A DNA stretch of 64,000 nucleotides from an uncultured Candidatus Rokubacteria bacterium (GTDB lineage: Bacteria; Methylomirabilota; Methylomirabilia; Rokubacteriales; DASRDR01). The translations under genes were made by a program, and so were the position numbers. Of the stretch, positions 47,413-63,702 are shown one piece after another. Location: contig CAWDVE010000009.1 in NCBI GenBank assembly GCA_963805625.1, forward strand, positions 1 through 64,000. Reading direction: 5' to 3'. Each line of letters starts with the position of its first letter. Position 1 is the stretch's first letter. The notes under the pieces were generated by a model. That model made no database searches. It had not been told where the DNA came from and was given only the letters and a program-made list of their open reading frames with translations.

Positions 47413-48060
47413 GTGCAGGCATCGACCAAACCTTCCCTGCCAGAAGTACCGGGCCTCCGCGGGGTCATCTTTGACTTCGGCGGCGTCCTGATCGACATGC
47501 GGTGGGACGTCTCCGCCGGCCTCGAGGACGCCCACGGCCTGCCCCGGCACGCGCTCCTCGAGACCCTGTACCGGACGCCGACGTGGCGGGAGATCGAGCG
47601 GGGCCAAGGCGACCTCCCCGCGTGGCGCGCCGGAGCGCACCGGTTGCTCGAGGAGCGGGCCGGCCACTCCCTGCCGGGGCTGCACGACGCCTGGGTGGCG
47701 GCGCGGCACCTGATCCGCGCCAACGTCCTACTGGCCCGGCGGCTCCGGCCCGCGTACCGCACGGCCATCCTCTCGAACGCCGATCAGAGCCTGCGAGGCC
47801 GCCTGCGAGAGCTCGGGATCCACGACCTCTTCGACACGGTGGTCTCGTCGGCCGAAGAGGGAATGGCCAAGCCGGACCTCGAGATCTATCGGCGCGCGGC
47901 GGCACGGCTCGGGCTCCCGCCGGAGTCCTGCGTCTTCGTGGACGACTACGACGCGAACGTCCGCGCGGCCGAGGCGGTCGGGATGCGGGGGATCGTCTAC
48001 CGGGTGGACCACGGCCAGGATCTCGCCGCGCTCCTGGCGGATCTCGGCGTCGTCAGCTAG
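47413..48060 (+). CDS. HAD-family phosphatase (IA variant)
   Basis: IFDFGGVL, ILSNA, KPDLEIY, FVDD. Confidence 0.9.
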   Translation: MQASTKPSLPEVPGLRGVIFDFGGVLIDMRWDVSAGLEDAHGLPRHALLETLYRTPTWREIERGQGDLPAWRAGAHRLLEERAGHSLPGLHDAWVAARHLIRANVLLARRLRPAYRTAILSNADQSLRGRLRELGIHDLFDTVVSSAEEGMAKPDLEIYRRAAARLGLPPESCVFVDDYDANVRAAEAVGMRGIVYRVDHGQDLAALLADLGVVS

Positions 48061-48914
48061 ACAGCGCCCGCATCCTCGAAGTAGTCCGAGTCGACTCGCT
48101 TGACGCTATAGGTCGCCGACGTGTTCGCGCCGAGTTCGAAGTCAATCATGAGTTCCGCCAGCCGACGACCGTCGATCAGGGCGACCTTCGGGTCGATAGA
48201 ATCAACGTAGGCTGTGGCCTCTGCCGAGAACGTGCCCGTCGTAATGAAGACCCCCTTCCTGGCGCGCCTTCCATGTAGCGCCCCGACGAATCGCTGAATC
48301 TCCGGCCGCCCAACCGTTCCGTCCCATTTCTTGGCTTGAAGGTAGACCACATCAAGTCCGAGGCGGTCCTCACTGATGACACCGTCGATCCCTTCGTCCC
48401 CCGCTCTGCCGATGGCCTTGCCGGCGTCCTTGCGAGACCCACCGTAGCCCATCTTCAGGAGGAGCTCGACCACCAAACGCTCGAAGAACTGCGGGGTGAC
48501 GGCTTTAACCCGGCTCAGCAGTTCAGACGCGAGGCCTACCCGCATCCTGAGATGCGCAGCCTCCAAGGCTTCCTCTGGGGTCTCGGGTTCTGCCTGACTC
48601 GTCGGAACCGCGCTCGGCATCTTTTCCGTCTCGGTCTTTGGGGTACGAAACTCGACGAACTCCGGATACTGCTCCAGAAACTTGATATCAATGCGTGGAG
48701 GAGGAGTCTTCAGGACGTCGCGCCCGCGAACGGACACCTGGAAGTGTCCTCGGCGCGGGGACAGGAGTAGCCCAGCCTGCTGAAGATAGCTCTTGGCCCA
48801 AGCGACTCGATTCGAGAACTTTGACTGCCGGCCACTCGGCAAGGGCTCTTCCAGGTCAGGATCCGATAGCTGCCCTTGAGCCGTCCGCCGACGAGCCAGA
48901 TTGGTGTCAGGCAC
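48057..48914 (-). CDS. mrr: Mrr-family (type IV) restriction endonuclease, N-terminally truncated
   Basis: LPSGRQSKFSNRVAWAKSYLQQAGLL (Mrr_N), FFERLVVELL, DEGIDG, YLQAKKW, GVFITTGTF; lower GC than its flanks. Confidence 0.88.
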   Translation of the reverse strand: MPDTNLARRRTAQGQLSDPDLEEPLPSGRQSKFSNRVAWAKSYLQQAGLLLSPRRGHFQVSVRGRDVLKTPPPRIDIKFLEQYPEFVEFRTPKTETEKMPSAVPTSQAEPETPEEALEAAHLRMRVGLASELLSRVKAVTPQFFERLVVELLLKMGYGGSRKDAGKAIGRAGDEGIDGVISEDRLGLDVVYLQAKKWDGTVGRPEIQRFVGALHGRRARKGVFITTGTFSAEATAYVDSIDPKVALIDGRRLAELMIDFELGANTSATYSVKRVDSDYFEDAGAV

Positions 48915-49724: not shown

Positions 49725-50735
49725 TCAGGGCGCGTGGATCTCGGACGCCGCGTGGAGGTCCGAGATCAACCCGCGTGCGGCCGGAGGGTCTTGGGAATCC
49801 GGGGTCTCGGCGGCCGGGACGCGCTCCGTCGCCCGCGCCCCGCGCTTCACCTGTTCACGGAGCTTGCAGAAGGCGCAGACCTCGCCCGTCGTGGTCTGGC
49901 CGCACCGGACGCACTCGAGGAGCGTAACGGTCTCGCGCTCCTGGAAGAGCCCGCGCGCCTTGTCGAGGAACCCCTGGAGGAACATCGCCTTCGAGCCCGG
50001 CGACGTGTCCTCGAGGCGATTGAGCAGCTCCTTGTGGGTGATCGACGTCGCGCCGCGCGAGAACGGGCACTCCTCCACGATGTAGTCGATGCCGCGAAGG
50101 AACGCGTAGGCGGCGGTCTCGCGCTCGCTCATCCGGAAGAGCGGCTTCACCCGGCGCGCGAGCCTGGGGTGCGTGGCAGCGAGAACCGGCATCTGCCGCG
50201 CCAGCGCCGACTCGTCCCAGCGCAGCGTCGAGCCGAACAGGGTCGCGGCCTCGTCGTCGAGGTTGTGCCCCGTGGCGACCACCGGGAACCCGCCCTCCAT
50301 CGCGGCGCGGTTCATGATGTAGCGCTTGGACAGCCCGCACGCGGAGCACGTCGGCCGCCGGGTGGCGTCTCTCACGGCGGGGATCGGGGCGCCCACCTCG
50401 TCGGCCACGGCCACGACGCGCAGGTCGAGCCCCCGCTCGGCGGCGAACGCCTGGCACCGGGCCTTCGAGGCGTGCGAGTAGTCGAAGATTCCGAGGTCGA
50501 TGTAGAGGCCCGTGGTCCGGTACCCCGCACCGTGGAGCACTTCCCAGAGGGCCAGGGAGTCCTTCCCGCCGGACACCGCGACGAGGACCTGCTCGTCGCG
50601 CGTGAACATGCGCCACCGCCGGACCGTCTCCAGCACGTGGTGCTGGAAGAAACCCAGGAAGTCGGGACCGCAGAAGGCGGTGTTGTGACGCCGGAGCTCC
50701 AGCACGGCCCGGCCGCCGCACTTCCGGCACTTCAC
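49725..50735 (-). CDS. ttuA: tRNA 2-thiolation enzyme, TtuA/Ncs6 family (TIGR00269-like)
   Basis: N-terminal CRKC, PP-loop VSGGKDS, CSAC, TGHNLDDE, ECPF, C-terminal CVRC..CAFC. Confidence 0.85.
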   Translation of the reverse strand: MKCRKCGGRAVLELRRHNTAFCGPDFLGFFQHHVLETVRRWRMFTRDEQVLVAVSGGKDSLALWEVLHGAGYRTTGLYIDLGIFDYSHASKARCQAFAAERGLDLRVVAVADEVGAPIPAVRDATRRPTCSACGLSKRYIMNRAAMEGGFPVVATGHNLDDEAATLFGSTLRWDESALARQMPVLAATHPRLARRVKPLFRMSERETAAYAFLRGIDYIVEECPFSRGATSITHKELLNRLEDTSPGSKAMFLQGFLDKARGLFQERETVTLLECVRCGQTTTGEVCAFCKLREQVKRGARATERVPAAETPDSQDPPAARGLISDLHAASEIHAP

Positions 50736-50932
50736 GATCGGCCTCCCGAGATCACCGGGCGGAGCTCCACCACGTCGTCGTCGGCCACGATCTCGTCGAT
50801 GGTGAGCAGGTCGCGCCCGCGGATCACCAGCACGGTGTCGGGCAGGACGCCCAGCTCCGCAAGGAGCTCCCGCACCCGGCGGCGGCCGCTCAGCTCGACT
50901 TCGCGTCCCTGGTTGCGGAGGACGACCTTCAT
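50732..50932 (-). CDS. ttuB: Ubiquitin-like sulfur carrier (TtuB/ThiS/MoaD) ending ...ISGG-RS
   Basis: 66 aa, beta-grasp-like sequence with VISGG; GTGA-coupled to ttuA. Confidence 0.82.
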   Translation of the reverse strand: MKVVLRNQGREVELSGRRRVRELLAELGVLPDTVLVIRGRDLLTIDEIVADDDVVELRPVISGGRS

Positions 50933-50944
50933 GGCGGGACTCAC

Positions 50945-51233
50945 TATACACGCCGCCCGCCTGGAGCGCTTGAAGCGCGCCCTCCACCCCATCCACACGG
51001 ACGAGACGCTCGAGGTCGCCGGGCTCGCATCCGGCGTGGCGCAAGAGCCGCGCATACGGGCTCGCGGGGCGCGCGTAGATCGTGCGACGCACGAGGTCGA
51101 CGAAGGTCGCGTCGCGCCGCTCGAGGCGGCGCGTGAGCTCCTCCCGCGCCCGATCGACCCCGATGGGCTGGCGCAGAAAGCCCGGAAGCCTCGCCAGGAG
51201 CCGAGCGCCAGCCAGAACGTCCGACGAGACCAC
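50945..51233 (-). pseudogene. N-terminal fragment of an unidentified larger protein
   Basis: About 95 protein-like codons (LARLPGFLRQP..IYARPASPYARLLRHAGCEPGD..GVEGAL) that degenerate at GGVY just before ttuB, with no stop of their own. Confidence 0.4.
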
Positions 51234-51258
51234 CCCGAGGCGCTCCGTCGGCGGCCTC

Positions 51259-52272
51259 TCAGGCCGAGGGGCGGCGCCGGCGTGTGCGGGCCACGGGCGA
51301 CGCCTCCGGATTCAGCAAGAGCGGCGCGGGCGGCGCGCCGCCCCGCGCCACGGCCAGGATCGACTCCACGCAGCATTGGCCCATCGCGGCCTCCGCCGCG
51401 AGATCCGAGCCCGCGGCGTGCGGCGTGACGACCACGTTGTCGAGGGTGAGGAGCGGGGAACCGGTCGGCGGCTCGCGGCGGAAGACGTCGAGCCCGGCGC
51501 CGGCGATCCGACGGCTCACGAGCGCCTCGTGGAGGGCGGCCTCGTCCACCAGTCCGCCCCGCGCCGTATTGATCAGGAACGCGGTTGGCTTCATGAGCTG
51601 GAGACGCGCGGCGTTGATCAGCCCGTCGGTCTCGGGAAGATGGGGCGCATGCAGGGTGACGAAATCGGACTCTCGGAGCAGCTGCTCGAGCGACGTCAGC
51701 TCGATGCCATGGCTCCGCGCATACGCCGCGTCGGGAGCCACGTCATGAGCCAGGACACGCATCTCGTAGGCGCGGCAGCGCCGCGCCACCGCCCGCCCGA
51801 TCCGCCCCAGCCCCACGATCCCGACCGTCGACCGCCAGAGGCCAGGCCGGAACTCCCACCCCCAGCCTCCCGCCATCACGCGCTGGTGGTAGACGACGAC
51901 GTTCCGGGCGACGGCGCCCATCAGGGCGAGGGCGAGGTCCGCGACGGTCTCGTGGTTCGCCCCGAACGTCATCGCGACATAGACACCGTGGCGCGTTGCC
52001 GCCGGAACGTCCACCTGGTCGTAGCCGACCCCGAACCGCGCGATCACCTCGAGGTCCCGCGCCTCGCGGAGCACGCGCTCCGTGTACGACTCGACGCCGG
52101 CGACCGTCGCGAAGACGCCGCGGAGCCCTTGGATCAGCTCCGCCTCGCCGTACGGGCGCCCGAGCGGACTACGCAGCACCTCGAGGCCGGCGGCCTCGAG
52201 GTGAGTGAGATACGCGGACGGCCGGCTCGCCAGGAGCGACGGCACGACGAGAACCTTGAGCGGTGCGGGCAT
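51259..52272 (-). CDS. D-2-hydroxyacid dehydrogenase (phosphoglycerate dehydrogenase-like)
   Basis: RFGVGYD, GIVGLGRIG, INTARGG, TPHAAG. Confidence 0.93.
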   Translation of the reverse strand: MPAPLKVLVVPSLLASRPSAYLTHLEAAGLEVLRSPLGRPYGEAELIQGLRGVFATVAGVESYTERVLREARDLEVIARFGVGYDQVDVPAATRHGVYVAMTFGANHETVADLALALMGAVARNVVVYHQRVMAGGWGWEFRPGLWRSTVGIVGLGRIGRAVARRCRAYEMRVLAHDVAPDAAYARSHGIELTSLEQLLRESDFVTLHAPHLPETDGLINAARLQLMKPTAFLINTARGGLVDEAALHEALVSRRIAGAGLDVFRREPPTGSPLLTLDNVVVTPHAAGSDLAAEAAMGQCCVESILAVARGGAPPAPLLLNPEASPVARTRRRRPSA

Positions 52273-52343
52273 CCGGGGTCTCCTAGAAATGGGGGGCAAG
52301 AGGCCGGGGCGGCTCCTCAGCCAACGTCATGATGAGGCGTGGG

Positions 52344-53690
52344 TCAAGCGCCCGGCGCCTCGCGCCGGACGACGCGGCGGGCCTTCAGCTCGTAGCGCGG
52401 CAGGCTCCGGGCCGGCACGGTCGCCACCTCGATGCGGATCCCGAGGTCACGCCGGAGCGCCGCGGTGATCCCGTCGACGGTCTCCCGAACGCTCTCCGCA
52501 GGTCGGCCGTTGCCGTCGATTTCGAGCAGAAGACGGACCTCGTCCAGGGCGCCTCGGCGAAACACCTCGATCTGGAACTCGTCCACCAGCGCGAAGCGGC
52601 GCACGATCCCCTCGAGGGCCGAGGGGAACACGTTGATGCCTCGCACGACCAGCATGTCGTCGACCCGACCGAGGATGCCTCCCTCGAGGCGGGCGAACGT
52701 GCGGCCGCACGGGCACGCCCCGGTGCCGAGCCGCACCCGGTCGCCCGATCGGTAACGAAGAACGGGCGCTCCCCACCGGCCGAGGTTCGTCAGCGTCAGC
52801 TCCCCGATCTCCCCGGGCGCCACCGGTCGGCCACTGTCCGGGTCCAGCACCTCGGCGACGAATTCGAGCTCGTTCACATGGAGGCCCGACTGCGCGACGC
52901 ATTCGAACCCGTAGGCGCCCACCTCGGTCATGCCCGCGTGATCGTACGCTCGGGCTCCCCAGAGCAACTCCAGGCGACGGCGCACGGCCGGGATGCCCGC
53001 CCCTGGCTCGCCCGCGTGGACCGTGGTGCGGACGCCGAGCGCGGCGGGGTCGGCACCCTGGGCGCGTGCAACCTCCGCGAGGTGGAGCCCGTAGGACGGC
53101 GTGCAGACGAGGGCCGTGGCGCCCAGATCCCGGATCGCGTGAAGCCGCGTCAGGGAGTCCTGACCGCCCCCGGGGATGGTCATTGCGCCGAGGACCCGGG
53201 CGCCCTCGAGCCCGGCCCAGAAGCCGACGAAGAGGCCGAACGAGAACGGGAAGAAGAGGCGGTCCTGCGGCCCCAGCCCCGCTCCCCGGAACACGAAGGC
53301 CCAGCAGCGCGCCCACCACGTCCACGACGCTTCCGTCTCGAGCCACCGGATCGGCGGGCCCGTGGTGCCCGAGGTCTGGAACACGCGCACGTAGCGGTCG
53401 AGCGGGTGCGTGTGGTTGGTGCCGAACGGTGGGTGTGCCGCCTGGTCGGCCGCCAGCTCCACCTTCGTGAGGCGCGGAAGCCTGGCGAAGTCCGCCCAGG
53501 AGCCGACGTCGCGCGGGTCCTGCACGCCGGCCGCCTGGAGACGTCCCCGCCAGAAGGCGTTCGAGCCCCAGACCTCGCCCACTCCCGCGGCGAGACGCTC
53601 CCATTGCCACCGCCGAAGGCTGTCGGGGGGCGCCGTCTCCCGCGCGCGGTCCAGGAACGGGACGTCGGCCGCCGCATCCGGGCGGCTCAT
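52344..53690 (-). CDS. Phenylacetate-CoA ligase family (aryl-CoA ligase)
   Basis: QTSGTTG P-loop, CTPSY, HAGMTEVG, LRYRSGD, GRVDDML. Confidence 0.88.
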   Translation of the reverse strand: MSRPDAAADVPFLDRARETAPPDSLRRWQWERLAAGVGEVWGSNAFWRGRLQAAGVQDPRDVGSWADFARLPRLTKVELAADQAAHPPFGTNHTHPLDRYVRVFQTSGTTGPPIRWLETEASWTWWARCWAFVFRGAGLGPQDRLFFPFSFGLFVGFWAGLEGARVLGAMTIPGGGQDSLTRLHAIRDLGATALVCTPSYGLHLAEVARAQGADPAALGVRTTVHAGEPGAGIPAVRRRLELLWGARAYDHAGMTEVGAYGFECVAQSGLHVNELEFVAEVLDPDSGRPVAPGEIGELTLTNLGRWGAPVLRYRSGDRVRLGTGACPCGRTFARLEGGILGRVDDMLVVRGINVFPSALEGIVRRFALVDEFQIEVFRRGALDEVRLLLEIDGNGRPAESVRETVDGITAALRRDLGIRIEVATVPARSLPRYELKARRVVRREAPGA

Positions 53691-53718
53691 GACCCGGCGA
53701 CTCCTCGCGCGGCGCGCC

Positions 53719-54612
53719 TCACGGGAGGGAGAGCTGGCCCGTCATCACGATGACCCCCTGCCCGCCGACGCGTACGCGGGTCGCGCGACCGGGGGCGCCG
53801 TGGACCTCGACAGCGATCCGCCCCGGCCGACCCTGGAAATCCCCTTGCTCTCCCCGGAACCGCGCCACGCCGTCGGCGGCGACGAGACCGCCGGTCTCCC
53901 AGAGCCACACGCCGATGGCCGCGTGCGAAGACCCGGTCGCGAAGTCCTCCGGGATCCCGAAGTGCGGGATGAAGTTGCGGCTGTGGGTGAGGGCGCCCGG
54001 TTCCCGGGTCGCTCGCGCCGTGAGGACGATCCCGCGGACCCCGCGGTCCTTCGCGAGCCGCCCGAGCCGGTCAAGGTCGGGCGCCAGCGCCCGGAGCGCG
54101 TCGAGGGTCGCCACCGGGATCAGGAGATCCTGCTCCGACGTTCGCGCGGGCGGTGCCCACGCGGCAACAGCTTCGGCGGGCAGTCCCAGGACCGCGAGAA
54201 ACGGCGAGAGATCTCCACTCTCCGGCGCCCAGCGCGGACAGTCCGGCTCGAACCACGCGGTGGCGGAGGTCTCCGACCCCTCGAGCGTGATCGCGAGCCG
54301 GTGGCGCGGGGCTTCGAAGACGAGCTGGCCGCGGGGGGCCTCGCCGCGTGCCGCAAGGACGTGGGCCGCCGCCACCGTGCCATGGCCGCAGAGCGTCAGC
54401 TCCATCCCGGCCGGCGAGTACCAGCGCAGCGCGCGATCGCCGCCTTTCGCGCCCGGGCGGAGGAACGCGGTCGCCGGCCGCGCCAGCTCCATCGCGACGG
54501 CCCGCATCGTGGCCTCGTCGAGACCCGTCGCATCAGGCACGACAGCGGCTGGGTTGCCCGTGAAGGGCGTCGACGTGAACGCGTCGACGAAGACGACCTC
54601 GATAGCGCTCAC
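53719..54612 (-). CDS. PhzF-family isomerase
   Basis: VDAFTSTPFTGNPAAV, ELTLCGHGTVAA, EDFATGS. Confidence 0.9.
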   Translation of the reverse strand: MSAIEVVFVDAFTSTPFTGNPAAVVPDATGLDEATMRAVAMELARPATAFLRPGAKGGDRALRWYSPAGMELTLCGHGTVAAAHVLAARGEAPRGQLVFEAPRHRLAITLEGSETSATAWFEPDCPRWAPESGDLSPFLAVLGLPAEAVAAWAPPARTSEQDLLIPVATLDALRALAPDLDRLGRLAKDRGVRGIVLTARATREPGALTHSRNFIPHFGIPEDFATGSSHAAIGVWLWETGGLVAADGVARFRGEQGDFQGRPGRIAVEVHGAPGRATRVRVGGQGVIVMTGQLSLP

Positions 54613-54700
54613 CGGACTATCCTCGCGGCGCATGGGAGTAGGTCCACCGGCTTCGATCCCACGACGTTCGGTCTCTGGCGGCCTGTGGCGCCCTGTGGGC

Positions 54701-55255
54701 TCACGCATCCTTGCCCGTGATGACCCAGAGCGTTCGCGCGGTGCCCGACCCGACGTTCTCCCACGTATGCGGAACACCCCCGTCGAGGTAGGCCGAATCG
54801 CCCGCCTCGAGAAGGTGGCGCTCGCCGTTGTACTGGAGGGCGACCTTCCCGTCCAGGACGTACATGAGCTTCATCTGCCCCGGCTCGATCAGGATGCGCT
54901 CGGGCGGCACGCTCGCGCCCCGCCGGCCGAGCGTCGAGACCACGGCGCGCACCTTGCCCCGGAAGAGGCCGGCGGCCAGGACCTCCCAGCGCTCGGTGGA
55001 ACCGTCGAAGCTGACGACCGCATAGTCCTTCCGGCGTCCCACGTGCAGCTGCCCGTTCGGGGCCTGCTCGAAGAAGGCGCCGATCGGAACGCCGAGGGCG
55101 CCCGCCAGCCGCCCCAGGGTGTGGAGAGACGGCGTCAGCTTGTCGGACTCGATCTGGGACACCAGGCTCGGTGTGAGCCCGGCCGTCTCCGCCAGGGTGT
55201 TCTGGCGGATGCCGCGATCCGTCCGCAGCGCCCGGATCCGCGCCCCGAGGGACAC
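54701..55255 (-). CDS. XRE-family HTH regulator with cupin domain
   Basis: LGARIRALR..LVSQIESDK..PSLHTL; cupin LEAGDSAY..PHTWEN. Confidence 0.9.
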   Translation of the reverse strand: MSLGARIRALRTDRGIRQNTLAETAGLTPSLVSQIESDKLTPSLHTLGRLAGALGVPIGAFFEQAPNGQLHVGRRKDYAVVSFDGSTERWEVLAAGLFRGKVRAVVSTLGRRGASVPPERILIEPGQMKLMYVLDGKVALQYNGERHLLEAGDSAYLDGGVPHTWENVGSGTARTLWVITGKDA

Positions 55256-55258
55256 CGG

Positions 55259-56671
55259 TCAGCTCCGGACGTACTCGAAGTCGACGGGATTCCCGTTGAT
55301 GCCGCGCGCGGGCGGCGCGATCCAACTGGCGAACTTCCCGCGCTCGACGACCGCGACCATCAAGCTCTGCACGAAGGCCTTGTCAGTCTCCGTCGGCAAC
55401 CACTCCGGGCGCCGTGCGTCCCATTCCGCCTGGCTGACGACCTCCCCGGCCGGGGACACGCGCGTCTCGGCGAACATCCCGATCGCCCGGTGGAACCCCC
55501 GGTGGGGCAGCCGGAGCTCGAAGTCGACCCCAAGCTTCCGGATGACCTGGTTCCAGCGGTCGACGCCACGCTGACAGTCCGCGATGTAGTCATCCCGCAG
55601 GCGCTCGTTGAGCGCGGGCAGCGCAGCCTCCTCCCGCGTCACGATGCGACCGTCGTCGATCTGCGTGACGGGGTACATCGCCTCGGCGAGGCGGTGGTCG
55701 TCGGTCTTCTTCCCCTCCTCGAACCGGCCCTTGAGCCCCGCGGTGTAGAAGTTGGCGGCGTTGGTCGAGATCTCCCCGCCGAACAGATCGATCGAGACGG
55801 AGAAGTGAAAATTCAGGTACCGCTGGATCGTGGCGAGGTCGATGGCCCCGTGCGTGCGGACGTCGTCCGTGTCGTGATCCCGCATCACCTCACAGGTGCG
55901 CTGGATGACGCGTCCGAGACCCGTCTCGCCGACGAACATGTGGTGCGCTTCTTCGGTCAGCATGAAGCGGCAGGTGCGGGAGAGCGGGTCGAACCCGCTC
56001 TCGGCGAGACTCGCGAGCTGGTACTTGCCGTCCCGGTCGGTGAAGTACGTGAACATGAAGAACGACAGCCAGTCAGACGTCTTCTCGTTGAACGCTCCGA
56101 GGATCCGCGGCCTGTCCCGGTTCCCCGAATGGCGCTGGAGCAGCGCCTCAGCCTCTTCCCGGCCGTCGCGGCCGAAGTGCGCGTGGAGGAGATAGACCAT
56201 CGCCCAGAGATGCCGCCCCTCTTCCACGTTGACCTGGAACAAGTTGCGGAGGTCGTAGAGCGACGGGCACGTCCGTCCCAGCTGGCGTTGCTGCTCCACC
56301 GACGCGGGCTCCGTATCGCCCTGCGTGACGATCAGCCGTCGGAGCGTACCCCGGTACTCCCCCGGCACGTCCTGCCACACCGGCTGCCCGCGGTGGGCGC
56401 CGAAGCCGATCGTCCGACTGGTCTCGGGCTCGGCCAGGAAGATCCCCCAGCGGTACTCGGGCATCCGCACGTAGTCGAAGTGCGCCCATCCCTGCGCGTC
56501 CACGCTCGTTGCCGTGCGGAGGTAAACGTCTCTCGCCTGGAAGCCCTCGGGCCCCATGTCGCGCCACCACTGGAGGAACCGCGGCTGCCACTCCTCCAGG
56601 GCCCGCAAGAGGCGCCGGTTCTCATGAAGGTGGACGTTGTTGGGAATGCGCTCCTGGTAGTCGATCGCCAT
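55259..56671 (-). CDS. boxB: Benzoyl-CoA 2,3-epoxidase di-iron subunit
   Basis: IPNNVHL, WWRDMGP, QGDTEPASVEQ, NVEEGRHLWAM, TDRDGK, EEAHHMF; TGATG overlap with boxC. Confidence 0.95.
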   Translation of the reverse strand: MAIDYQERIPNNVHLHENRRLLRALEEWQPRFLQWWRDMGPEGFQARDVYLRTATSVDAQGWAHFDYVRMPEYRWGIFLAEPETSRTIGFGAHRGQPVWQDVPGEYRGTLRRLIVTQGDTEPASVEQQRQLGRTCPSLYDLRNLFQVNVEEGRHLWAMVYLLHAHFGRDGREEAEALLQRHSGNRDRPRILGAFNEKTSDWLSFFMFTYFTDRDGKYQLASLAESGFDPLSRTCRFMLTEEAHHMFVGETGLGRVIQRTCEVMRDHDTDDVRTHGAIDLATIQRYLNFHFSVSIDLFGGEISTNAANFYTAGLKGRFEEGKKTDDHRLAEAMYPVTQIDDGRIVTREEAALPALNERLRDDYIADCQRGVDRWNQVIRKLGVDFELRLPHRGFHRAIGMFAETRVSPAGEVVSQAEWDARRPEWLPTETDKAFVQSLMVAVVERGKFASWIAPPARGINGNPVDFEYVRS

Positions 56672-58353
56672 CAGGCTCTCCTCCGATCGAACTCCGGGCG
56701 CTGGCCCGTCCCGTACACGCGGAGCGCCCCCCGCTCGCCCACCGCGTTCGCTCGCTGGAAGATCCAGTTCTGCCACGCCGAGAGGCGCGCGAAGATCTTG
56801 CTCTCGACGGTCTCCGGTCCTCCGAATCTGAGCGAGGCCTCCATGCCGGTCAGGGCGTCCGGCGAGAATGCCGCGCGCTCCTCGATCGCGATCCGGACCT
56901 CGTCGTCCCAGTCGATGTCGTCGGGCGTGAACGTCACGAGCCCGGCGTCCGCCGCGGCGCGCGCGTCGAGGTCCTCGCCGATCCGCCGCTTCAACTCGTC
57001 GACCCGCTGGGGCTCTCCCAGGAACCGGCTCTGAAGACGCGTGAGCCCGTTGACCATCGGGTACGCCCCGAAGCTCGGCTCCCCCAGCCGAACCGTCGCC
57101 GGCCTGCCGATGGCGCCCTCCCGCGTGCCTTCCAGCATGTACGAGCGATCGGCGGCCAGCAGCAGCTCGAGGAGGCTCCCCGCGAAGCACGAGCCGGGCT
57201 CGACGAGCGCGAAGATGGACCGGGAAGACACGTCGAGGCGCTTCAGAACCCGCTTCCAGAAGAGCCGGATCTCCCGCACGAGCCAGTCGGCCTGGTGATC
57301 GGCCAGGATCCGGTCGTACGCCGTCACGAGATCCGCGCTCCCCGTCGTGCGGAACACCCAGACCCCGACCGCCTCCTCGTTGGCGCGGAGGTGGAGGATC
57401 AGATCGTCCAGCTCCCGCGCGAGCGCGAGCGGCCAGAAGGCGGCGCCCTGCGTCTGCAGTCCGGCCAGGTCGCCCGGCGGGGCGGCCGTCGGCGCCGCCA
57501 CCGCGATCTCCGCCACGCCCCGAGCCCGATCGACCGCGCAGGTGAGGTGGCCGTACGCGATCCGATCCCCCTCGATCGTCCGGTCGAGCGGCGATAGCGC
57601 GATTCCCCGCGCCGACGCGGGCCGGTCGCTCCGCTCCGCGATCTGCGCCGCGCGGGTCCGGGCTGCTTCGGCAAGCCGGGACCGTGAGACGACCTCGTCG
57701 ACCAGGCCCCACTCCACCGCCCGCTGACCCTTGATCCCTTCCTCGAGCGTGCAGAAGACGTCCGCCCGGTCCCGCCTGACGTGACGCTTGTCGATCAGAC
57801 GCGTGAGCCCGCCGGTGCCGGGCAGCACCGCGAGGAGGGGCACCTCGGGAAGCGACACGGCGGTGTTGCCGTCGTCCGCCATCACGATCCAGTCGGTCGC
57901 CAGGGCCAGCTCGAAGCCGCCGCCGGCGCAGGGCCCGTTCACGACGGTGAGGTAGCGCTGGCCGGAGAACGCGCTCGCCTCCTCCATCGCGTTCCGCGTC
58001 TCGTTCGTGAACTTGCAGAAGTTCACCTTCCAGCCGTGGCCGGACTGGCTCAGCATGCGGATGTTCGCCCCGGCGCAGAACACCCGCTCCTTGAGCGAGG
58101 TGAGGACCACGGCGCCGACCTCGGGGTGCTCGAACCGGAGCCGCTGAATGGCGTCGGCAAGCTCGATGTCGACGCCGAGGTCATAGGAGTTGAGCTTCAG
58201 CTCGTAGCCGGGCCGGAGCCCGCCGTCCTCCTGGACGTTCATCCCGAGCGTCGCCACGCGGCCCTCGACCGTCAGCTTCCAGTGCCGGTAGCGCGATGGA
58301 TCCGTCCGGAAGTCCACCGGGGTTGTCACCTGGGTCGCCGCGCGCTCCGTCAT
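56671..58353 (-). CDS. boxC: 2,3-epoxybenzoyl-CoA dihydrolase
   Basis: YRHWKL, YELKLNSYDLGVDIEL, KVNFCKFTNETRN, RLSAWQNWIF; tandem crotonase domains. Confidence 0.95.
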   Translation of the reverse strand: MTERAATQVTTPVDFRTDPSRYRHWKLTVEGRVATLGMNVQEDGGLRPGYELKLNSYDLGVDIELADAIQRLRFEHPEVGAVVLTSLKERVFCAGANIRMLSQSGHGWKVNFCKFTNETRNAMEEASAFSGQRYLTVVNGPCAGGGFELALATDWIVMADDGNTAVSLPEVPLLAVLPGTGGLTRLIDKRHVRRDRADVFCTLEEGIKGQRAVEWGLVDEVVSRSRLAEAARTRAAQIAERSDRPASARGIALSPLDRTIEGDRIAYGHLTCAVDRARGVAEIAVAAPTAAPPGDLAGLQTQGAAFWPLALARELDDLILHLRANEEAVGVWVFRTTGSADLVTAYDRILADHQADWLVREIRLFWKRVLKRLDVSSRSIFALVEPGSCFAGSLLELLLAADRSYMLEGTREGAIGRPATVRLGEPSFGAYPMVNGLTRLQSRFLGEPQRVDELKRRIGEDLDARAAADAGLVTFTPDDIDWDDEVRIAIEERAAFSPDALTGMEASLRFGGPETVESKIFARLSAWQNWIFQRANAVGERGALRVYGTGQRPEFDRRRA

Positions 58354-58373
58354 GCCAGTCTCTTCACGGACCG

Positions 58374-59411
58374 CTATCCCTCCTCCACGGCTCGTGCCGA
58401 CATCCCGGAGGGCCAGAGGCCCTCGAGAGGCAGCCCGGCCAGCTCCCGGAGGGCACGGGTGACGTACACCCGCGTCATGCGCTTCCGATAGTGATAGACG
58501 AGATCGGTGTTGTCGAGCGGCTTCGCCGGCCGGGCCGCGGCTTCGGCCGCCCGCGTGATGGCCTCCGGGCCGAACGGCTGCCCGACGAGCATGCGCGCGG
58601 CCTCGGGCACCTCGCGCGGCGTCGAGGCCACGGCCCCGAGGACGATCCGGGCGTCCCGGCAAACGCCCCCCTCGACGCGCACCGCCGCCGCGACGCCAAG
58701 CACCGGGAAGTCGAACGCCCCCCGTCTGCGAAGCTTCCAGTAGGTGGCGCGCCAGCCGTCGACCGGGGGCAGGCGGAGCTCGGTCACGATCTCGTCGGGA
58801 GCCTTGCCGAGGTACTCGATGCCGTCGTCCCGGAAGAGTCCCGCGACCGGAATCCGGCGCGCGCCCCCGGGGCCGACCAGGGTGGCCTCGGCGCCGAGCG
58901 CCCACAGGACCGGCGCCGTGTCGGAGGAGGAGACGGCCCAGCAGCGGGTGCTGCCGGGCGCCACCAGGCAGATGTCGCCGTCCTTCTTCATGCAGAAACC
59001 GATCGACCGGCGCCACTCGTAGGACTGGTTGTAGTAGTTGCAGCGCGTGTCGACGCAGACGTTGCCGCCGAGCGTCCCCATGTTGCGGAGCTGCGGCGTC
59101 GAGACCACGCCGGCCGCTCGCGCGAGGGCCGGGTAGCGGGCGGCCACCTCAGGGTGCTCCGCGACGCGGGTGAGCGTCGTGCCAGCGCCCACCACCAGAC
59201 CGTCCCGCGCGCTTCCCTGGATTCGCGCCAGCTCCCGGATCCCGCGGAGGCCCACCAGGACCCGCGGCTCCATCTGAAGACGCTTCATGTTGGGATAGAG
59301 GTCGGTGCCCCCGGCGACCACCGCGGCCTCGCGGCCGTGCTCGACGAGGAGCCCGACCGCCTCGGCCACGCTCCGCGGCGCGAAGTACCGGAAGGGCGGA
59401 AGCCGCATCAT
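58374..59411 (-). CDS. hcrB: 4-hydroxybenzoyl-CoA reductase-like FAD/[4Fe-4S] subunit
   Basis: AGGTDL, QLRNMGTLGGN, plus the Cys-rich insert TRCNYYNQS..W..FCMKKDGDIC..TRC characteristic of HcrB/HbaD. Confidence 0.88.
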   Translation of the reverse strand: MMRLPPFRYFAPRSVAEAVGLLVEHGREAAVVAGGTDLYPNMKRLQMEPRVLVGLRGIRELARIQGSARDGLVVGAGTTLTRVAEHPEVAARYPALARAAGVVSTPQLRNMGTLGGNVCVDTRCNYYNQSYEWRRSIGFCMKKDGDICLVAPGSTRCWAVSSSDTAPVLWALGAEATLVGPGGARRIPVAGLFRDDGIEYLGKAPDEIVTELRLPPVDGWRATYWKLRRRGAFDFPVLGVAAAVRVEGGVCRDARIVLGAVASTPREVPEAARMLVGQPFGPEAITRAAEAAARPAKPLDNTDLVYHYRKRMTRVYVTRALRELAGLPLEGLWPSGMSARAVEEG

Positions 59412-59511
59412 GGGTACGCCCCCCAGTCGGATACGGTCCTCAGCCTCTGGCGACCCCGCCCATTGATCGAACGGCCTTCAGCCGAGGGGGGACGCCGCTC
59501 TCGACAGCCCT

Positions 59512-61947
59512 TCACGGGTGGGAACGCTCCTTTCCGTGGACCACGCCGGCCGCGCGCCCGTCGGGGTCGATCCAGGGCGGCGGAACGCGGGTCGGATCCG
59601 GGAACTCGACGTGCGGGAGGCGCTCCGGCCCCACGCGCGGCGCCTTGCCCTGAGCTTTCCGGTCGAGCGCCTTCAGGATCTTCTCGGGCGTGATCGGCAC
59701 CTCGTCGATCCGCACGCCGATCGCGTCGTAGACCGCGTTGGCGACCGCCGGGATCACCGGGAGGAGGGGGCCCTGGCCCGCCTCCTTGGCGCCGAACGGT
59801 CCCTCGGGGTCCCGGGTCTCCACCAGGAGGGTCGTGATCTCCGGCGTCTCGAGCGTCGTCGGGCTCTTGTACTCGAGGAGCGACGGGATCTTGTGGAGCC
59901 CGTGGACGCGGAAGGCCGACTCCTCCATGAGGGCTTCCCCGAGCCCCATGTAGATCGAGCCCTCGACCTGGCCCTCCACAAGGAGCGGGTTGATCGCGGT
60001 CCCCCCGTCGTGGGCGATCCACACGTGGTCGACCCGGATGTCGCCGGTCTCCGGGTCGACCTCGAGCTCCACGGCGCAGGCCGAGTAGGAGTACGCGGGC
60101 GTCGGGCCGACCCCCGACCCCTTGAACTTGGCCGCGCGCCGGGGCGGCGTGTACGAGCCGGCGGCGACGAGCGTCCCGAAGGCCGCCTCCGCCAGCCGCG
60201 CCGCCTCGTCGAAGGCAAGCCCGCGAACCGGATCGTCCCGCAGGAAGATGCGCCGGTCTCGGGCCTCGAGGTCCTCGGGCGAGGCCTCGAGCTTCTTCGC
60301 GGCCGCGGCGAGAAGCTGCTCCCGGAGCTTCTCGGCCGCCTCGCGGGCCGCGTTGCCCGTCATCAGAGTCACCCGCGAGGAGTACGAGCCGAGGTCCACG
60401 GGGGTGAGATCCGTGTCGGCGGTGACGACCCGCACGTCCTCCGGCCGGACGCCCAGCACCTCGGCGACGACGTACGCCAAGACGGAGTCGGATCCCTGTC
60501 CGATGTCGGTGGAGCCGCAGAATGCCGCAACGCCGCCGCCGCGGTCGATCTTCACCATCACGCCCGAGTGCGGCATGTCGTTCCAGTAGATCGGGAGGCC
60601 CGCCCCGGACAGGTAGGCGGAGGCCGCAAACCCGATGCCGCGGCCCGAGGGCAGCTTCCGGAACTTCTCCCGCCAGCCCGACGCCTCCACCACGCGGTCG
60701 ATGCACTCCGGGAGACCGCACGTCGTCACGGTGAGGTGGTTCACCGTCTTCCCGTGCTCGGGCACGACGGTGCGCCGCCGCATTCTCGCCGGGTCGAGGC
60801 CGAGCTCCTCGGCGATCTTGTCGAGGTGAACCTCGAGGGCGAATCGGGGCTGGGGCGTGCCGTGGCCGCGCTTCGGGCCGCAGGGGGGCTTGTTCGTGAA
60901 GACGCGGCAGCCCTCGAACTTGTATCGGGCGATCCGGTAGGTCACGGTCTGGAGCGCGCCCGTGTAGAACGTCGACGCGACCCCATAGGAGCCGTACGCC
61001 CCCCCGTCGAGCCAGGTCCGGAAGTGGAGCGCCAGGATCTCGCCGTCCTTCCGCACCCCCGACCGCACCCACATCAGCACGGGATGGCGGCCCCGGTGGG
61101 TGTAGAAGACCTCCTCGCGCGTGAGCGTCGTCTTGACCGGGCGGCCCGTGAGCTGGGCCAGCCGCGCCACCGCCATCTCGTGGCTGAAGGGGTCGGACTT
61201 CCCGCCGAACCCGCCGCCGTTCGGGGTCGCGACGACGCGGATGTGGCTCATCGGGACCCCGAGGACCTTCCCGAGAGCCCGGTGGACGTAGTGCGGCGTC
61301 TGGGTCGAGGACCAGAGCGTCAACTTCCCGTCCGGCGTCCACTGGGCGACGGCCGCGTGCTGCTCCATCGGCAGGTGCGTGTTCCCCTCGAAGAAGAACA
61401 CGTCCTCGCGGACGAGATCGGCCTCGCGAAACCCCTCCTCGACGTCACCGAACTCGAGCGAGACCAGCTTGTGGATGTTGGGCCCGTCTCCGTACTCGTG
61501 GATCCGGTGAGCGCCCTCGCGGAGCGCGGCCTCGATCGACATGAGCGCATCGAGGGGCTCGTACTCGACGTCGATCATCCGCGCGGCGGCCTCCGCCGTC
61601 TCCTCGTCCACGGCGGCGACGGCCGCCACGGGGTCTCCCACGAAGCGCACCTTCTCGACGCAGAGCGGCTCCTCGTCCTGGCTCACGGGCATGATCCCGA
61701 AGCGGACCGGGGGAAAATCGCGCCCGGTGATGACCGCGTAGACGCCGGGCAGCGCGGCCGCGCGCGTCGTGTCGATCCGCCGGATGAGGGCGTGCGGGTG
61801 CTGGGCCCGGAGAAGCTTCGCGTACGCCATGCGCGGGAAGACGAGGTCGTCGGCGAAGCGCGTCTCGCCGGTCACCTTTGCCCAGGCGTCGACCTTGGGG
61901 AGCCGCTGACCGACGACGGAGAGGCGTCGCTCGCGCGGGCTACTCAC
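59512..61947 (-). CDS. hcrA: 4-hydroxybenzoyl-CoA reductase-like molybdopterin subunit
   Basis: STQTPHYVH, GGGFGGK, PCGPKRGHG, DIGQGS, DLGSYSSRVT, GQVEG, GPFGAKEAGQG. Confidence 0.85.
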   Translation of the reverse strand: MSSPRERRLSVVGQRLPKVDAWAKVTGETRFADDLVFPRMAYAKLLRAQHPHALIRRIDTTRAAALPGVYAVITGRDFPPVRFGIMPVSQDEEPLCVEKVRFVGDPVAAVAAVDEETAEAAARMIDVEYEPLDALMSIEAALREGAHRIHEYGDGPNIHKLVSLEFGDVEEGFREADLVREDVFFFEGNTHLPMEQHAAVAQWTPDGKLTLWSSTQTPHYVHRALGKVLGVPMSHIRVVATPNGGGFGGKSDPFSHEMAVARLAQLTGRPVKTTLTREEVFYTHRGRHPVLMWVRSGVRKDGEILALHFRTWLDGGAYGSYGVASTFYTGALQTVTYRIARYKFEGCRVFTNKPPCGPKRGHGTPQPRFALEVHLDKIAEELGLDPARMRRRTVVPEHGKTVNHLTVTTCGLPECIDRVVEASGWREKFRKLPSGRGIGFAASAYLSGAGLPIYWNDMPHSGVMVKIDRGGGVAAFCGSTDIGQGSDSVLAYVVAEVLGVRPEDVRVVTADTDLTPVDLGSYSSRVTLMTGNAAREAAEKLREQLLAAAAKKLEASPEDLEARDRRIFLRDDPVRGLAFDEAARLAEAAFGTLVAAGSYTPPRRAAKFKGSGVGPTPAYSYSACAVELEVDPETGDIRVDHVWIAHDGGTAINPLLVEGQVEGSIYMGLGEALMEESAFRVHGLHKIPSLLEYKSPTTLETPEITTLLVETRDPEGPFGAKEAGQGPLLPVIPAVANAVYDAIGVRIDEVPITPEKILKALDRKAQGKAPRVGPERLPHVEFPDPTRVPPPWIDPDGRAAGVVHGKERSHP

Positions 61948-62435
61948 GGGCGGCTCCCCGCGCCCTGGCCGGCCGTCCGGCCGGCGGCGAGCTCGACGGC
62001 ATCGAGGATCTTCGTGTACCCGGTGCAGCGGCAGAGATTCCCGGCGAGAGCGGCCCGGATCGCGTCGCGGTCGGGCCGTGGCGTGGCGTCCAGAAGGGCC
62101 CGGGCGGTGAGGAGGATCCCCGGCGTGCAGTACCCGCACTGCGCGGCCCCCAGCTCCGCGAAGGCCTGCTGGAGCGGGTCGAGCCGGCTCCCATCGGCGA
62201 GGCCCTCCACGGTCAGGATCGCCACATGTTGACACTCGATCGCGAGGGCAAGGCAGGAAAGAACCGGCTGGCCATCCACGAGCACTGTGCAGGTGCCGCA
62301 CTCCCCCAGCTCGCACCCGTGCTTGGTCCCCGGCAGCGCGAGGTCCTCGCGCAGCACCTCGAGGAGCGTCCGGTGCACCGGGACGGCGACCTCGCGACGC
62401 TCCCCGTTCACGGTCAGGGTCATGAGGCTTCGCAT
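61944..62435 (-). CDS. hcrC: 2x[2Fe-2S] subunit of a xanthine-oxidase-family enzyme
   Basis: GTKHGCELGECGTC, SCL, QCGYCTPG, NLCRCTGY. Confidence 0.9.
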   Translation of the reverse strand: MRSLMTLTVNGERREVAVPVHRTLLEVLREDLALPGTKHGCELGECGTCTVLVDGQPVLSCLALAIECQHVAILTVEGLADGSRLDPLQQAFAELGAAQCGYCTPGILLTARALLDATPRPDRDAIRAALAGNLCRCTGYTKILDAVELAAGRTAGQGAGSRP

Positions 62436-62457
62436 GACGCGCCCCCGGACGATTGGG

Positions 62458-62513
62458 ATTCAGGCTGAATGAAGTCTAATTAATGAATACTGAATATGGC
62501 AGGCAGCTGTCAA
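62458..62513 (-). promoter_or_regulatory. Promoter/operator region of the hcr-box operon
   Basis: AT-rich island; TTGACA at 62513-62508; perfect palindrome ATTCAG-G-CTGAAT at 62458-62470 plus further ATTCA half-sites. Confidence 0.6.
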
Positions 62514-62716
62514 CTCCCGGGCGCAGACCCGGGACTGGCGCTGATCGTAACAGGCGGAGCGAAGCCGGCCGTCCAACTGTGGGACGCTGGCCGTGCATGC
62601 GGCGCCCGCCCTCCGGGACAGACGTATAGTGGAAGTGTCCCGAACTCATCCCGCTCCCCGTCAGGTGCGGCCGAGCGCGCGGTGAAAAGCAAAGCAAGAG
62701 CTAGCAGCGCTCTCAT
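62510..62716 (-). pseudogene. Truncated gene start (signal-peptide-like) after ligJ
   Basis: GGAGG RBS and ATGA overlap with the ligJ stop; MRALLALALLFTA then non-protein-like sequence. Confidence 0.35.
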
Positions 62717-63702
62717 ATCCTCCACCTTGAATAGACCTTCTTGGCGTTGCCTTCGAAGATCTTCTCCTTCTCCGCCGCGCCGAGCCCGCTCGCGTCGATG
62801 TACTTCTTGGTGTCGTCGAAATACTGCCCGGTCTCCGGATCGATGCCGCGCACCGCGCCCACCATCTCAGAGGCGAACAGGATGTTGTCCACCGGGATCA
62901 CCTTCAGCAGCAGGTCGATGCCCGGCTGGTGGTAGACGCAGGTGTCGAAGTACACGTTCTTCAGCAGGTGCTCCTTCAGCGGCGGGCGCTTCATGTCCTG
63001 CGCCAGGCCGCGGTAGCGCCCCCAGTGGTAGGGCACCGCCCCGCCGCCGTGCGGGATGACGAACTTGAGCGCCGGGAAGTCCTTGAACAGATCGCCCTGG
63101 ATGAGCTGCATGAACGCCGTCGTGTCGGCGTTGATGTAGTGCGCGCCGGTGAAGTGGAAGGCCGGGTTGCACGAGGAGCTGACGTGCACCATCGTCGGCA
63201 CGTCCAGCTCGACCATCTTCTCGTAGACCGGGTACCACCACTTGTCGGTGAGCGGCACTTCCTTCCACCAGCCGCCGGAGGGATCGGGGTTCAGGTTGCA
63301 GCCGATGAAGCCCATCTGCTTCACGCAGCGCTCGAGCTCCTCGACGCAGTTCTTCGGCGAGACGCCCGGCGACTGCGGCAGCATGCACACCGGGGCGAAG
63401 TTCTTCGGGTAGAGCGTGCAGACGCGGTGAATCAGGTCGTTCTGCACGCGCGCCCACTGCGCGCTGATGGCGGCGTCGCCGACGTGGTGCTCCATCGACC
63501 CCGCGCGCGGCGAGAAGAAGGTGACGTCGCTACCCCTTTCTCTTTGCAGCTTCAATTGATTCGCTTCGAGACTGTCGCGAATCTGGTCGTCGGAGATCTT
63601 CGGACCCTTCGGATCGGGCTTCTCGTTACCCACCTGGGCCTTGCGCCAATCCCACAAGGGCTGCGGCGCGGTCGTGTAGTGGCCGTGGCAGTCGACGATC
63701 AT
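62713..63702 (-). CDS. ligJ: 4-oxalomesaconate hydratase-like amidohydrolase
   Basis: MIVDCHGHYTTAP, LPQSPG, NLNPDPSGG, HYINADTTAFMQ, PHGGGAVPYHWGRYRG, FASEMVGAVRGIDP. Confidence 0.9.
   Translation of the reverse strand: MIVDCHGHYTTAPQPLWDWRKAQVGNEKPDPKGPKISDDQIRDSLEANQLKLQRERGSDVTFFSPRAGSMEHHVGDAAISAQWARVQNDLIHRVCTLYPKNFAPVCMLPQSPGVSPKNCVEELERCVKQMGFIGCNLNPDPSGGWWKEVPLTDKWWYPVYEKMVELDVPTMVHVSSSCNPAFHFTGAHYINADTTAFMQLIQGDLFKDFPALKFVIPHGGGAVPYHWGRYRGLAQDMKRPPLKEHLLKNVYFDTCVYHQPGIDLLLKVIPVDNILFASEMVGAVRGIDPETGQYFDDTKKYIDASGLGAAEKEKIFEGNAKKVYSRWRI

Follow-up and report, generated by a model that had tools for sequence, protein, structure and literature searches.

A glutamine-type, Hcr-like molybdenum enzyme linked to BoxCB in a conserved aryl-CoA gene cluster of Rokubacteriales

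Two described systems resemble the gene cluster analyzed here. One is the 4-hydroxybenzoyl-CoA reductase (HBCR) of Thauera aromatica, HcrCAB (PDB 1rm6/1sb3); we take HbaBCD of Rhodopseudomonas to be a related enzyme of the same activity. The other is the Box system of Aromatoleum (Azoarcus) evansii, which includes BoxA, BoxB, BoxC, BoxD and BoxR. Separate benzoyl-CoA reductase (bcr) and box clusters within one genome are known from the available text of two reports (PMC4453571, PMC10803450). The window studied here, a stretch of 64,000 nt at the start of contig CAWDVE010000009.1 (assembly GCA_963805625.1, an uncultured Candidatus Rokubacteria bacterium), brings hcr-like and box genes together. 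In a minus-strand cluster of eight genes, those for an HcrCAB-like molybdenum (Mo) enzyme are followed by boxC, boxB and genes for a regulator, a PhzF-family protein and a CoA ligase. This hcr-box operon is a real, conserved and uncharacterised instance of hybrid aryl-CoA catabolism.

The Mo enzyme shares with Thauera HcrCAB the C-A-B gene order, an extra [4Fe-4S] loop and the Mo-cofactor motifs STQ, GGFG, RGHG and GSYSSR. HBCR is the top NCBIfam and PDB match of all three subunits, yet each scores below its equivalog cut-off. The HcrC-like 2x[2Fe-2S] subunit (163 aa, 62435-61944 (-), with Fer2 and Fer2_2 domains) reaches 178.6 bits against its best match, TIGR03193 (cut-off 257.8). For the HcrA-like molybdopterin subunit (61947-59512 (-)), the score is 880.9 bits against TIGR03194 (cut-off 994.55), and its top PDB match is 1rm6_A of T. 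aromatica at 657 bits, with the runner-up at 301. The HcrB-like FAD subunit (59411-58374 (-)) scores 306.1 bits against TIGR03195 (cut-off 404.55). It carries the extra loop, as Cys124, 140, 148 and 157 align with the [4Fe-4S] loop of 1rm6_B and are invariant in 51/51 rows.

The active site differs. A CAG codon at 59775-59773 (-) places Gln opposite Glu726 of 1rm6_A (number counted from the printed alignment), which we take, from the alignment, to be the catalytic residue of HBCR. Gln was present in all 74 related loci covering the site, from 80 examined, and in 120/120 close homologues. Glu, by comparison, was found in 10/10 paralogues within this genome and in 35 of the 36 Thauera-type metagenome loci that cover the site (43 fetched by motif). 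Among 149 distant cluster representatives, 123 have Glu, 7 Gln and 12 another residue, and 7 do not cover the position. A single Chloroflexota member of the group, at 62% identity, retains Glu (1/25 typed). Judged from its sequence, the enzyme is Hcr-like, not Hcr; the label hcrCAB, given in an earlier note on this DNA, holds as the nearest relationship of every subunit but not as an assignment.

Trees of the Mo enzyme give the same picture. They comprised 55 and 51 rows (four rows were dropped from the second), were built with quick IQ-TREE and FastTree runs, carry SH-aLRT or SH-like supports, and have motif-matched metagenome loci standing in for T. aromatica. The Gln enzymes form one clade (support 99), apart from the Thauera-type clade (support 100), whose loci are 41-45% identical to the window enzyme. 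In both trees the Gln clade lies outside the Thauera types, and also outside a 17-row clade that joins these to five acidobacterial Glu types; the membership in the Hcr clade on which the earlier note relied is thus not borne out. In the genomes of those five Glu-type enzymes, sisters of the Thauera-type clade, a BoxB-like or PaaA-like oxygenase is always present, and three of six more basal Glu types co-occur with a benzoyl-CoA reductase over cut-off. The neighbour of the Gln clade is one Glu enzyme, L147 (G110:C20), flanked by hydantoinase A/B and isochorismatase genes, a neighbourhood hinting at an N-heterocycle substrate.

The identities of BoxC and BoxB, by contrast with the hcr label, are upheld by scores above the NCBIfam cut-offs. 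BoxC, dihydrolase of 2,3-epoxybenzoyl-CoA (58353-56671 (-)), scores 908.4 against TIGR03222 (cut-off 712.3). BoxB, the di-iron benzoyl-CoA 2,3-epoxidase (56671-55259 (-)), scores 861.4 against TIGR03225 (cut-off 499.1) and matches A. evansii BoxB (PDB 3per_A) along its whole length with 754.7 bits; its EExRH and EExHH motifs are invariant in 41/41 sequences. The two genes are adjacent, as in A. evansii, and the genome also has a benzoate-CoA ligase family gene (TIGR02262, 697 over a cut-off of 375), on contig C10 and unlinked to the cluster. Unlike the A. evansii system, this genome yielded neither BoxA (best match 34 bits) nor BoxD (best 135.6 bits, cut-off 444), and the Mo enzyme heads the operon. 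In place of BoxR there is an XRE-cupin regulator (184 aa, 55255-54701 (-); HTH_3 and Cupin_2) with no match to the shikimate-kinase domain. The lack of boxA and boxD, which the earlier note missed, leaves room for the Mo enzyme to play a rival part.

Linkage of hcr and box is not peculiar to this assembly. The Mo subunit, at an identity of at least 66%, occurs in 60/65 other Rokubacteriales genomes and in 4/25 other Methylomirabilota. Of the 80 related loci, 57 reach at least 6.5 kb downstream, and 42 of these carry boxB, in every case with boxC and the XRE gene. Such lineage-wide conservation led us to reject an assembly artefact or a unique linkage. The remaining 15 long loci have a short BoxB-like gene (3), a PaaA-like cluster (2) or no oxygenase (10). 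Thauera-type loci, in contrast, showed boxB or boxC in 0/43, with flanks of up to 7 kb and many short contigs. In 60 genomes chosen from 90 (52 Rokubacteriales and 8 other Methylomirabilota), boxB was over cut-off in 45 and boxA was found in none. Across the 80 loci, the operon strand showed no ferredoxin/FNR motif apart from one distant spurious match. Nor did we find pobA in this genome or in any of 91 Methylomirabilota genomes, which supports the proposed bypass of PobA.

Other members of the operon vary. Among the 42 hcr-boxB loci, a PaaK-like ligase is present in 33, a benzoate-CoA ligase family gene in 31, RidA in 21 and phzF in 6. The PhzF-family isomerase of the window (54633-53719 (-), TIGR00654), once counted as an operon member, is thus a local passenger, and we rejected it as a core part; most relatives have the benzoate-CoA ligase family gene at this place, and half have RidA. 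The PaaK-like CoA ligase (53690-52344 (-)) scores far below cut-off with both PaaK models (222.7 against 646.3 and 234.4 against 700). Its naming as an aryl-CoA ligase holds as regards CoA ligation, while an aryl substrate would be a prediction. Orthologues with 52-55% identity adjoin the Mo enzyme in Chloroflexota, and by this conservation of sequence and position the ligase ranks as a conserved companion of that enzyme.

Across phyla, occurrence of the Gln clade follows that of di-iron aryl-CoA oxygenases lacking a reductase. An Hcr-like enzyme was found in 36 of 101 Acidobacteriota (two frameshifted in the assembly), 23 of them Gln-type (one, G117, from an unpublished genome). All 23 have an oxygenase, BoxB-like in 16 and a divergent PaaA-like type in 7, and never both. 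No boxA was found in the 101 genomes, and pobA in one. Conversely, 8 of 30 acidobacterial genomes with a BoxB-like gene lack any Hcr-like enzyme (one, G131, at a contig end). Among 151 Chloroflexota, the Mo enzyme occurs in 31 and the PaaA-like variant in 27; 26 carry the two together, mostly on separate contigs. Where the Mo enzyme occurs without the variant, another BoxB-like protein is present in 4/5. Sequences of this variant share 59-62% identity between phyla and about 29% with canonical PaaA. The Glu-retaining Chloroflexota member holds the same PaaA-like partner in its genome, which argues that a changed role need not go with Gln. These counts are patterns and not p-values: kin are not independent, and Fisher tests, which ignore kinship, were not relied on.

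Several oxygenases met in this survey deserve mention in their own right. A PaaA/PaaC-like cluster in which no reductase was found (L046:13490-17287; also L093, L094, L157-L161 and L263-L275) is a candidate new family of benzoyl-CoA oxygenases. At least two further BoxB-like di-iron families, of about 372 and 412 aa and with intact iron-ligand motifs, were seen (L041:5309-6424, L042:7881-8999, L146, L154, L096:1222-2454), and the short BoxB-like type shares operons with Glu- or Gln-type Hcr-like enzymes. This genome also has a lone PaaA-like di-iron gene (L288:5518-6414; G000:C10:379517-380503) that shares about 30% identity with either PaaA type; we recognised no paa genes around it.

What might the Mo enzyme do? 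From the sequences, we give roughly even chances to a ferredoxin-driven feeder reductase that would convert a hydroxybenzoyl-CoA, probably the 4-isomer, to benzoyl-CoA for BoxB; 4-hydroxybenzoyl-CoA is the substrate that we infer. The PaaK-like or the benzoate-CoA ligase, both present as genes, would first attach CoA. Electrons would pass from reduced ferredoxin to the [4Fe-4S] cluster of the FAD subunit, then to FAD, the two [2Fe-2S] clusters and Mo, with the hydroxyl leaving as water. Since Gln stands where Glu is usual, the proton would have to come from another source, perhaps from water or from a conserved Lys of the PKRGHG loop. BoxB, as the orthologue of the A. evansii epoxidase, would then epoxidise benzoyl-CoA with O2, and BoxC, likewise by orthology, would open the ring. 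A ferredoxin or general reductase could stand in for BoxA, and a generic aldehyde dehydrogenase for BoxD. The route would operate at low O2.

A feeder role is suggested by the likeness to T. aromatica HBCR (by far the nearest solved structure, with matching gene order and extra loop), by the lack of PobA in these lineages, and by the partners that bracket the clade in the trees, benzoyl-CoA reductase and aryl-CoA oxygenases, both of which consume benzoyl-CoA. The dependence also runs one way, from Mo enzyme to oxygenase and not always back, as a feeder predicts. If one ferredoxin supplied BoxB as well as the Mo enzyme, the absence of BoxA would be accounted for. The genome encodes an aa3 oxidase, the PorB/KorB subunit of a ferredoxin-reducing oxidoreductase and an FdxA ferredoxin, which makes O2 respiration and a supply of reduced ferredoxin both plausible; the earlier pairing of O2 with ferredoxin-driven chemistry is therefore sound as far as gene content goes.

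Bypass of benzoyl-CoA reductase, also part of the original proposal, is less clear-cut. This genome has a class I benzoyl-CoA-reductase-like cluster on contig C14, with bcrC-like, bcrB-like, two activator-like and a dienoyl-CoA hydratase-like gene, none of which reaches its cut-off, so the bypass is not clearly true here. It fits better in relatives: a bcrB-like gene occurs in 12/40 hcr+box Rokubacteriales (none over cut-off) and in 0/3 of the same genus. In the other 28, which lack a benzoyl-CoA reductase, Box would be the necessary outlet for any benzoyl-CoA that the Mo enzyme makes. In the C14 cluster (L090:5341-17633; G000:C14, about 139300-151600), genes for a Mo-bisPGD subunit, a DsrO-like Fe-S protein and a membrane protein split the bcrC/bcrB-like genes from the activator genes.

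Several observations weigh against the feeder role. The Glu replaced here is, according to the available text of two reports, essential in catalysis by the xanthine oxidase (XO) family (PMC10420851, PMC11760930), and the pocket is altered relative to 1rm6_A in two further places (ARTEALHF to GKSDPFSH, AMRGHG to PKRGHG). In the accessible part of PMC11760930, a urolithin dehydroxylase is fully blocked in air, which strains any coupling of such an enzyme to an O2-dependent step. The PaaA-like variant is nearly always accompanied by the Mo enzyme (8/8 Acidobacteriota, 26/27 Chloroflexota), a pairing tighter than an optional feeder needs. Finally, ligases adjoining Thauera-type hcr genes are 33-38% identical to the window ligase, against 31-38% for its own paralogues. 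We had considered these ligases (10/43 loci) as support for a shared substrate, and rejected them, being no closer than random PaaK paralogues.

The tight pairing and the missing BoxA are what a different role, which we regard as possible though unlikely, would account for. Here the Mo enzyme would serve as electron supplier of the di-iron oxygenase in place of BoxA/PaaE, oxidising a substrate at Mo and passing electrons via FAD and the [4Fe-4S] cluster to BoxB, directly or through ferredoxin. In Rokubacteria that substrate is possibly the aldehyde product of BoxC, in which case BoxD would be replaced too. The absence of boxA from the surveyed Methylomirabilota (including the 45 with boxB over cut-off) and Acidobacteriota fits this role, as do the absence of BoxD here, the want of a ferredoxin/FNR motif at the loci and the extra cluster, which is also present in the oxidising aldehyde oxidase 5y6q_B. 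So does the range of partners, since the clade pairs with BoxB, the short BoxB, a third BoxB-like type and the PaaA-like type; the last is a near-obligate partner, and no reductase was found among the scanned ORFs (63 of 170 candidates from 20 oxygenase loci) near 12 PaaA-like clusters. However, the eight Acidobacteriota with BoxB-like genes and neither BoxA nor Mo enzyme show that other donors exist, and on these genomes we rejected an obligate replacement of BoxA for every BoxB. The lost catalytic base speaks against oxidative hydroxylation, and in other lineages an aldehyde dehydrogenase adjoins the Mo genes, so that the role of BoxD is already filled there. Contact between BoxA and BoxB is transient, according to the available text of PMC4498308. 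A complex prediction for the HcrB-like subunit and BoxB (own alignments, with FAD and 4Fe-4S) scored 0.00 and was not used as evidence; a single-sequence AlphaFold model of the Mo subunit (pLDDT 33) was discarded, and a plasmid search gave merely 39% paralogues.

In its broadest form, this role would make the glutamate-less Mo enzyme a new kind of partner of di-iron aryl-CoA epoxidases in Rokubacteriales, Acidobacteriota and Chloroflexota. It would oxidise an intermediate, return the electrons to a BoxB or PaaA-like oxygenase, replace the NADPH reductase and need no catalytic Glu. We hold this general version to be doubtful, a little more so than the electron-supplying role as such.

Rearrangement of epoxides to phenols is established chemistry, and the Mo enzyme could act after the oxygenase, reducing hydroxybenzoyl-CoA or other oxygenated by-products of such rearrangement back to benzoyl-CoA. 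We think this improbable. Proteobacterial Box runs without a Mo enzyme, with only BoxABCD given in the available text of PMC4498308, and 2- or 3-hydroxy groups are not para to the thioester, a position that the proposed mechanism of HBCR requires (bioRxiv 2025.01.17.632430, in the part available). Salvage would nonetheless account for the near-obligate pairing with several oxygenase families, and for the altered pocket. Least probable of all is removal of another ring substituent, such as the amino group of an aminobenzoyl-CoA: the fixed Gln and Lys changes would fit a different leaving group, and RidA and PhzF, families that handle amino or imine intermediates, occur in 21/42 and 6/42 loci, but none of the 17 acidobacterial neighbourhoods of the Mo enzyme that were fetched showed RidA, a family that is common in any case (6 copies in this genome).

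The layout of the cluster is consistent with a single transcript. All eight open reading frames (ORFs) are unbroken and on the minus strand, with a GC content at third codon positions (GC3) of 0.87-0.95. From hcrC to the ligase gene, the junctions are a 4-nt overlap (the GTG start of hcrA overlapping the hcrC stop), a 100-nt gap, 20 nt, a 1-nt overlap, 3 nt, 67 nt and 28 nt. Upstream of hcrC lies a putative promoter region (62513-62480 (-)), with a TTGACA -35 box (62513-62508) and an AT-rich -10/operator-like block. Both elements are kept in 11/11 aligned sequences (10 TTGACA, 1 TTGACG); the conserved -35 box came from comparing relatives, and a consensus promoter scanner returned 0 promoters. 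With intact ORFs, tight packing and a conserved promoter, the co-oriented eight-gene cluster described earlier is confirmed. A terminator between hcr and box would have separated the two sets, and our scan showed no intergenic terminator-like site there. Terminator-like sites were at chance level (5 against 3.1±1.6), and the sole intergenic one on the minus strand (62715-62695) is upstream of the promoter. Together these features suggest that the eight genes are co-transcribed. Six RNA runs share 0.05-0.14 of the stretch and were not used as evidence.

One detail of the earlier description fares less well. A 35-codon mini-ORF between hcrA and hcrB (59515-59408 (-)) exists, but forms the end of a shadow ORF of 644 codons and is probably no gene. 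The hcrA/hcrB junction differs between relatives, with unrelated genes sometimes inserted, and we gave the mini-ORF no weight as a functional bridge. Small unrelated genes at the hcrA/hcrB and hcrB/boxC junctions of close relatives (L002:4477-4953, L003:13576-14337, L007:12535-13119, L008:11566-11994) appear by eye to be nitroreductase-like, P-loop ATPase and phosphatase-like.

The host genome measures 7.27 Mb (99.9% complete, 6.3% contaminated), and its closest relatives, at 92-99%, are metagenome-assembled genomes (MAGs) of 'Ca. Rokubacteria'/Methylomirabilota. Beyond the ligase, a D-2-hydroxyacid dehydrogenase gene (51259-52299) follows in the same orientation, and holds the same spot in five close relatives; the transcript may thus include it as a ninth gene. 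Further on, an Mrr-like restriction protein, whose GC3 is lower (0.71), and a TtuA-like thiolase accompanied by a ThiS-like partner were recognised by eye only (48057-48914 and 49725-51376). Directly upstream, on the same strand, are genes for the beta and alpha subunits of a class III extradiol dioxygenase, a LigK aldolase (over cut-off) and an Amidohydro_2 (Pfam) protein that we take to be LigJ-like (window 62713-63702; G000:C9:64505-66487, L153). Together these genes make up a set for 4,5-cleavage of gallate/protocatechuate, although pobA was not found in this genome.

Judged from its gene content, the cluster as a whole likely forms a low-oxygen route for plant phenolic acids of which we found no description. 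Soils commonly harbour Rokubacteriales, Acidobacteriota and Chloroflexota, and the Mo-enzyme clade occurs in 60/65, 23/101 and about 30/151 of their sampled genomes. If the Mo enzyme feeds Box, a large share of hydroxybenzoate turnover in soil may use a reductive-then-oxygenolytic route. Copies of 'HBCR' are reported from soil MAGs in the available text of bioRxiv 2025.11.25.690425. Many homologues of the Mo enzyme are labelled '4-hydroxybenzoyl-CoA reductase' by JGI, and can thus be mistaken for signs that aromatics are degraded anaerobically. As an XO-family enzyme that is natural and widespread yet has Gln where the 'essential' Glu would be, it also offers a direct test of this residue in the reductive direction, and the Gln clade points to a function for the orphan, reductase-less PaaA-like oxygenases.

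Our literature search, which left most subscription papers outside its reach, turned up no published account of hcr-box linkage or of the Gln clade. Three further systems invite comparison. The available text on SAR324 (PMC4782131) describes a ligase, BoxB and BoxC without BoxD, as here, and some of those bins have an annotated '4-hydroxybenzoyl-CoA reductase'; in that text, however, reductase and box are neither linked nor put in a joint route. PhgABC of Brevibacillus laterosporus (PMC11848710, as far as available) likewise handles 4-hydroxybenzoate aerobically, by a CoA-dependent route without PobA. Yet it is a 4-hydroxybenzoyl-CoA 1-hydroxylase acting with an NIH shift, so that oxygen is added on the way to gentisate and the hydroxyl is not removed, and no Mo enzyme takes part. 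The third is the urolithin 9-dehydroxylase UcdCFO of Enterocloster, an XO-family enzyme that works in reverse and removes a para hydroxyl. According to the available parts of the two reports (PMC11760930; bioRxiv 2025.01.17.632430), UcdCFO keeps the catalytic Glu, has no extra [4Fe-4S] loop, runs on NAD(P)H and works strictly without oxygen, whereas the Mo enzyme of the window has Gln, carries the loop and is linked to O2-dependent oxygenases.

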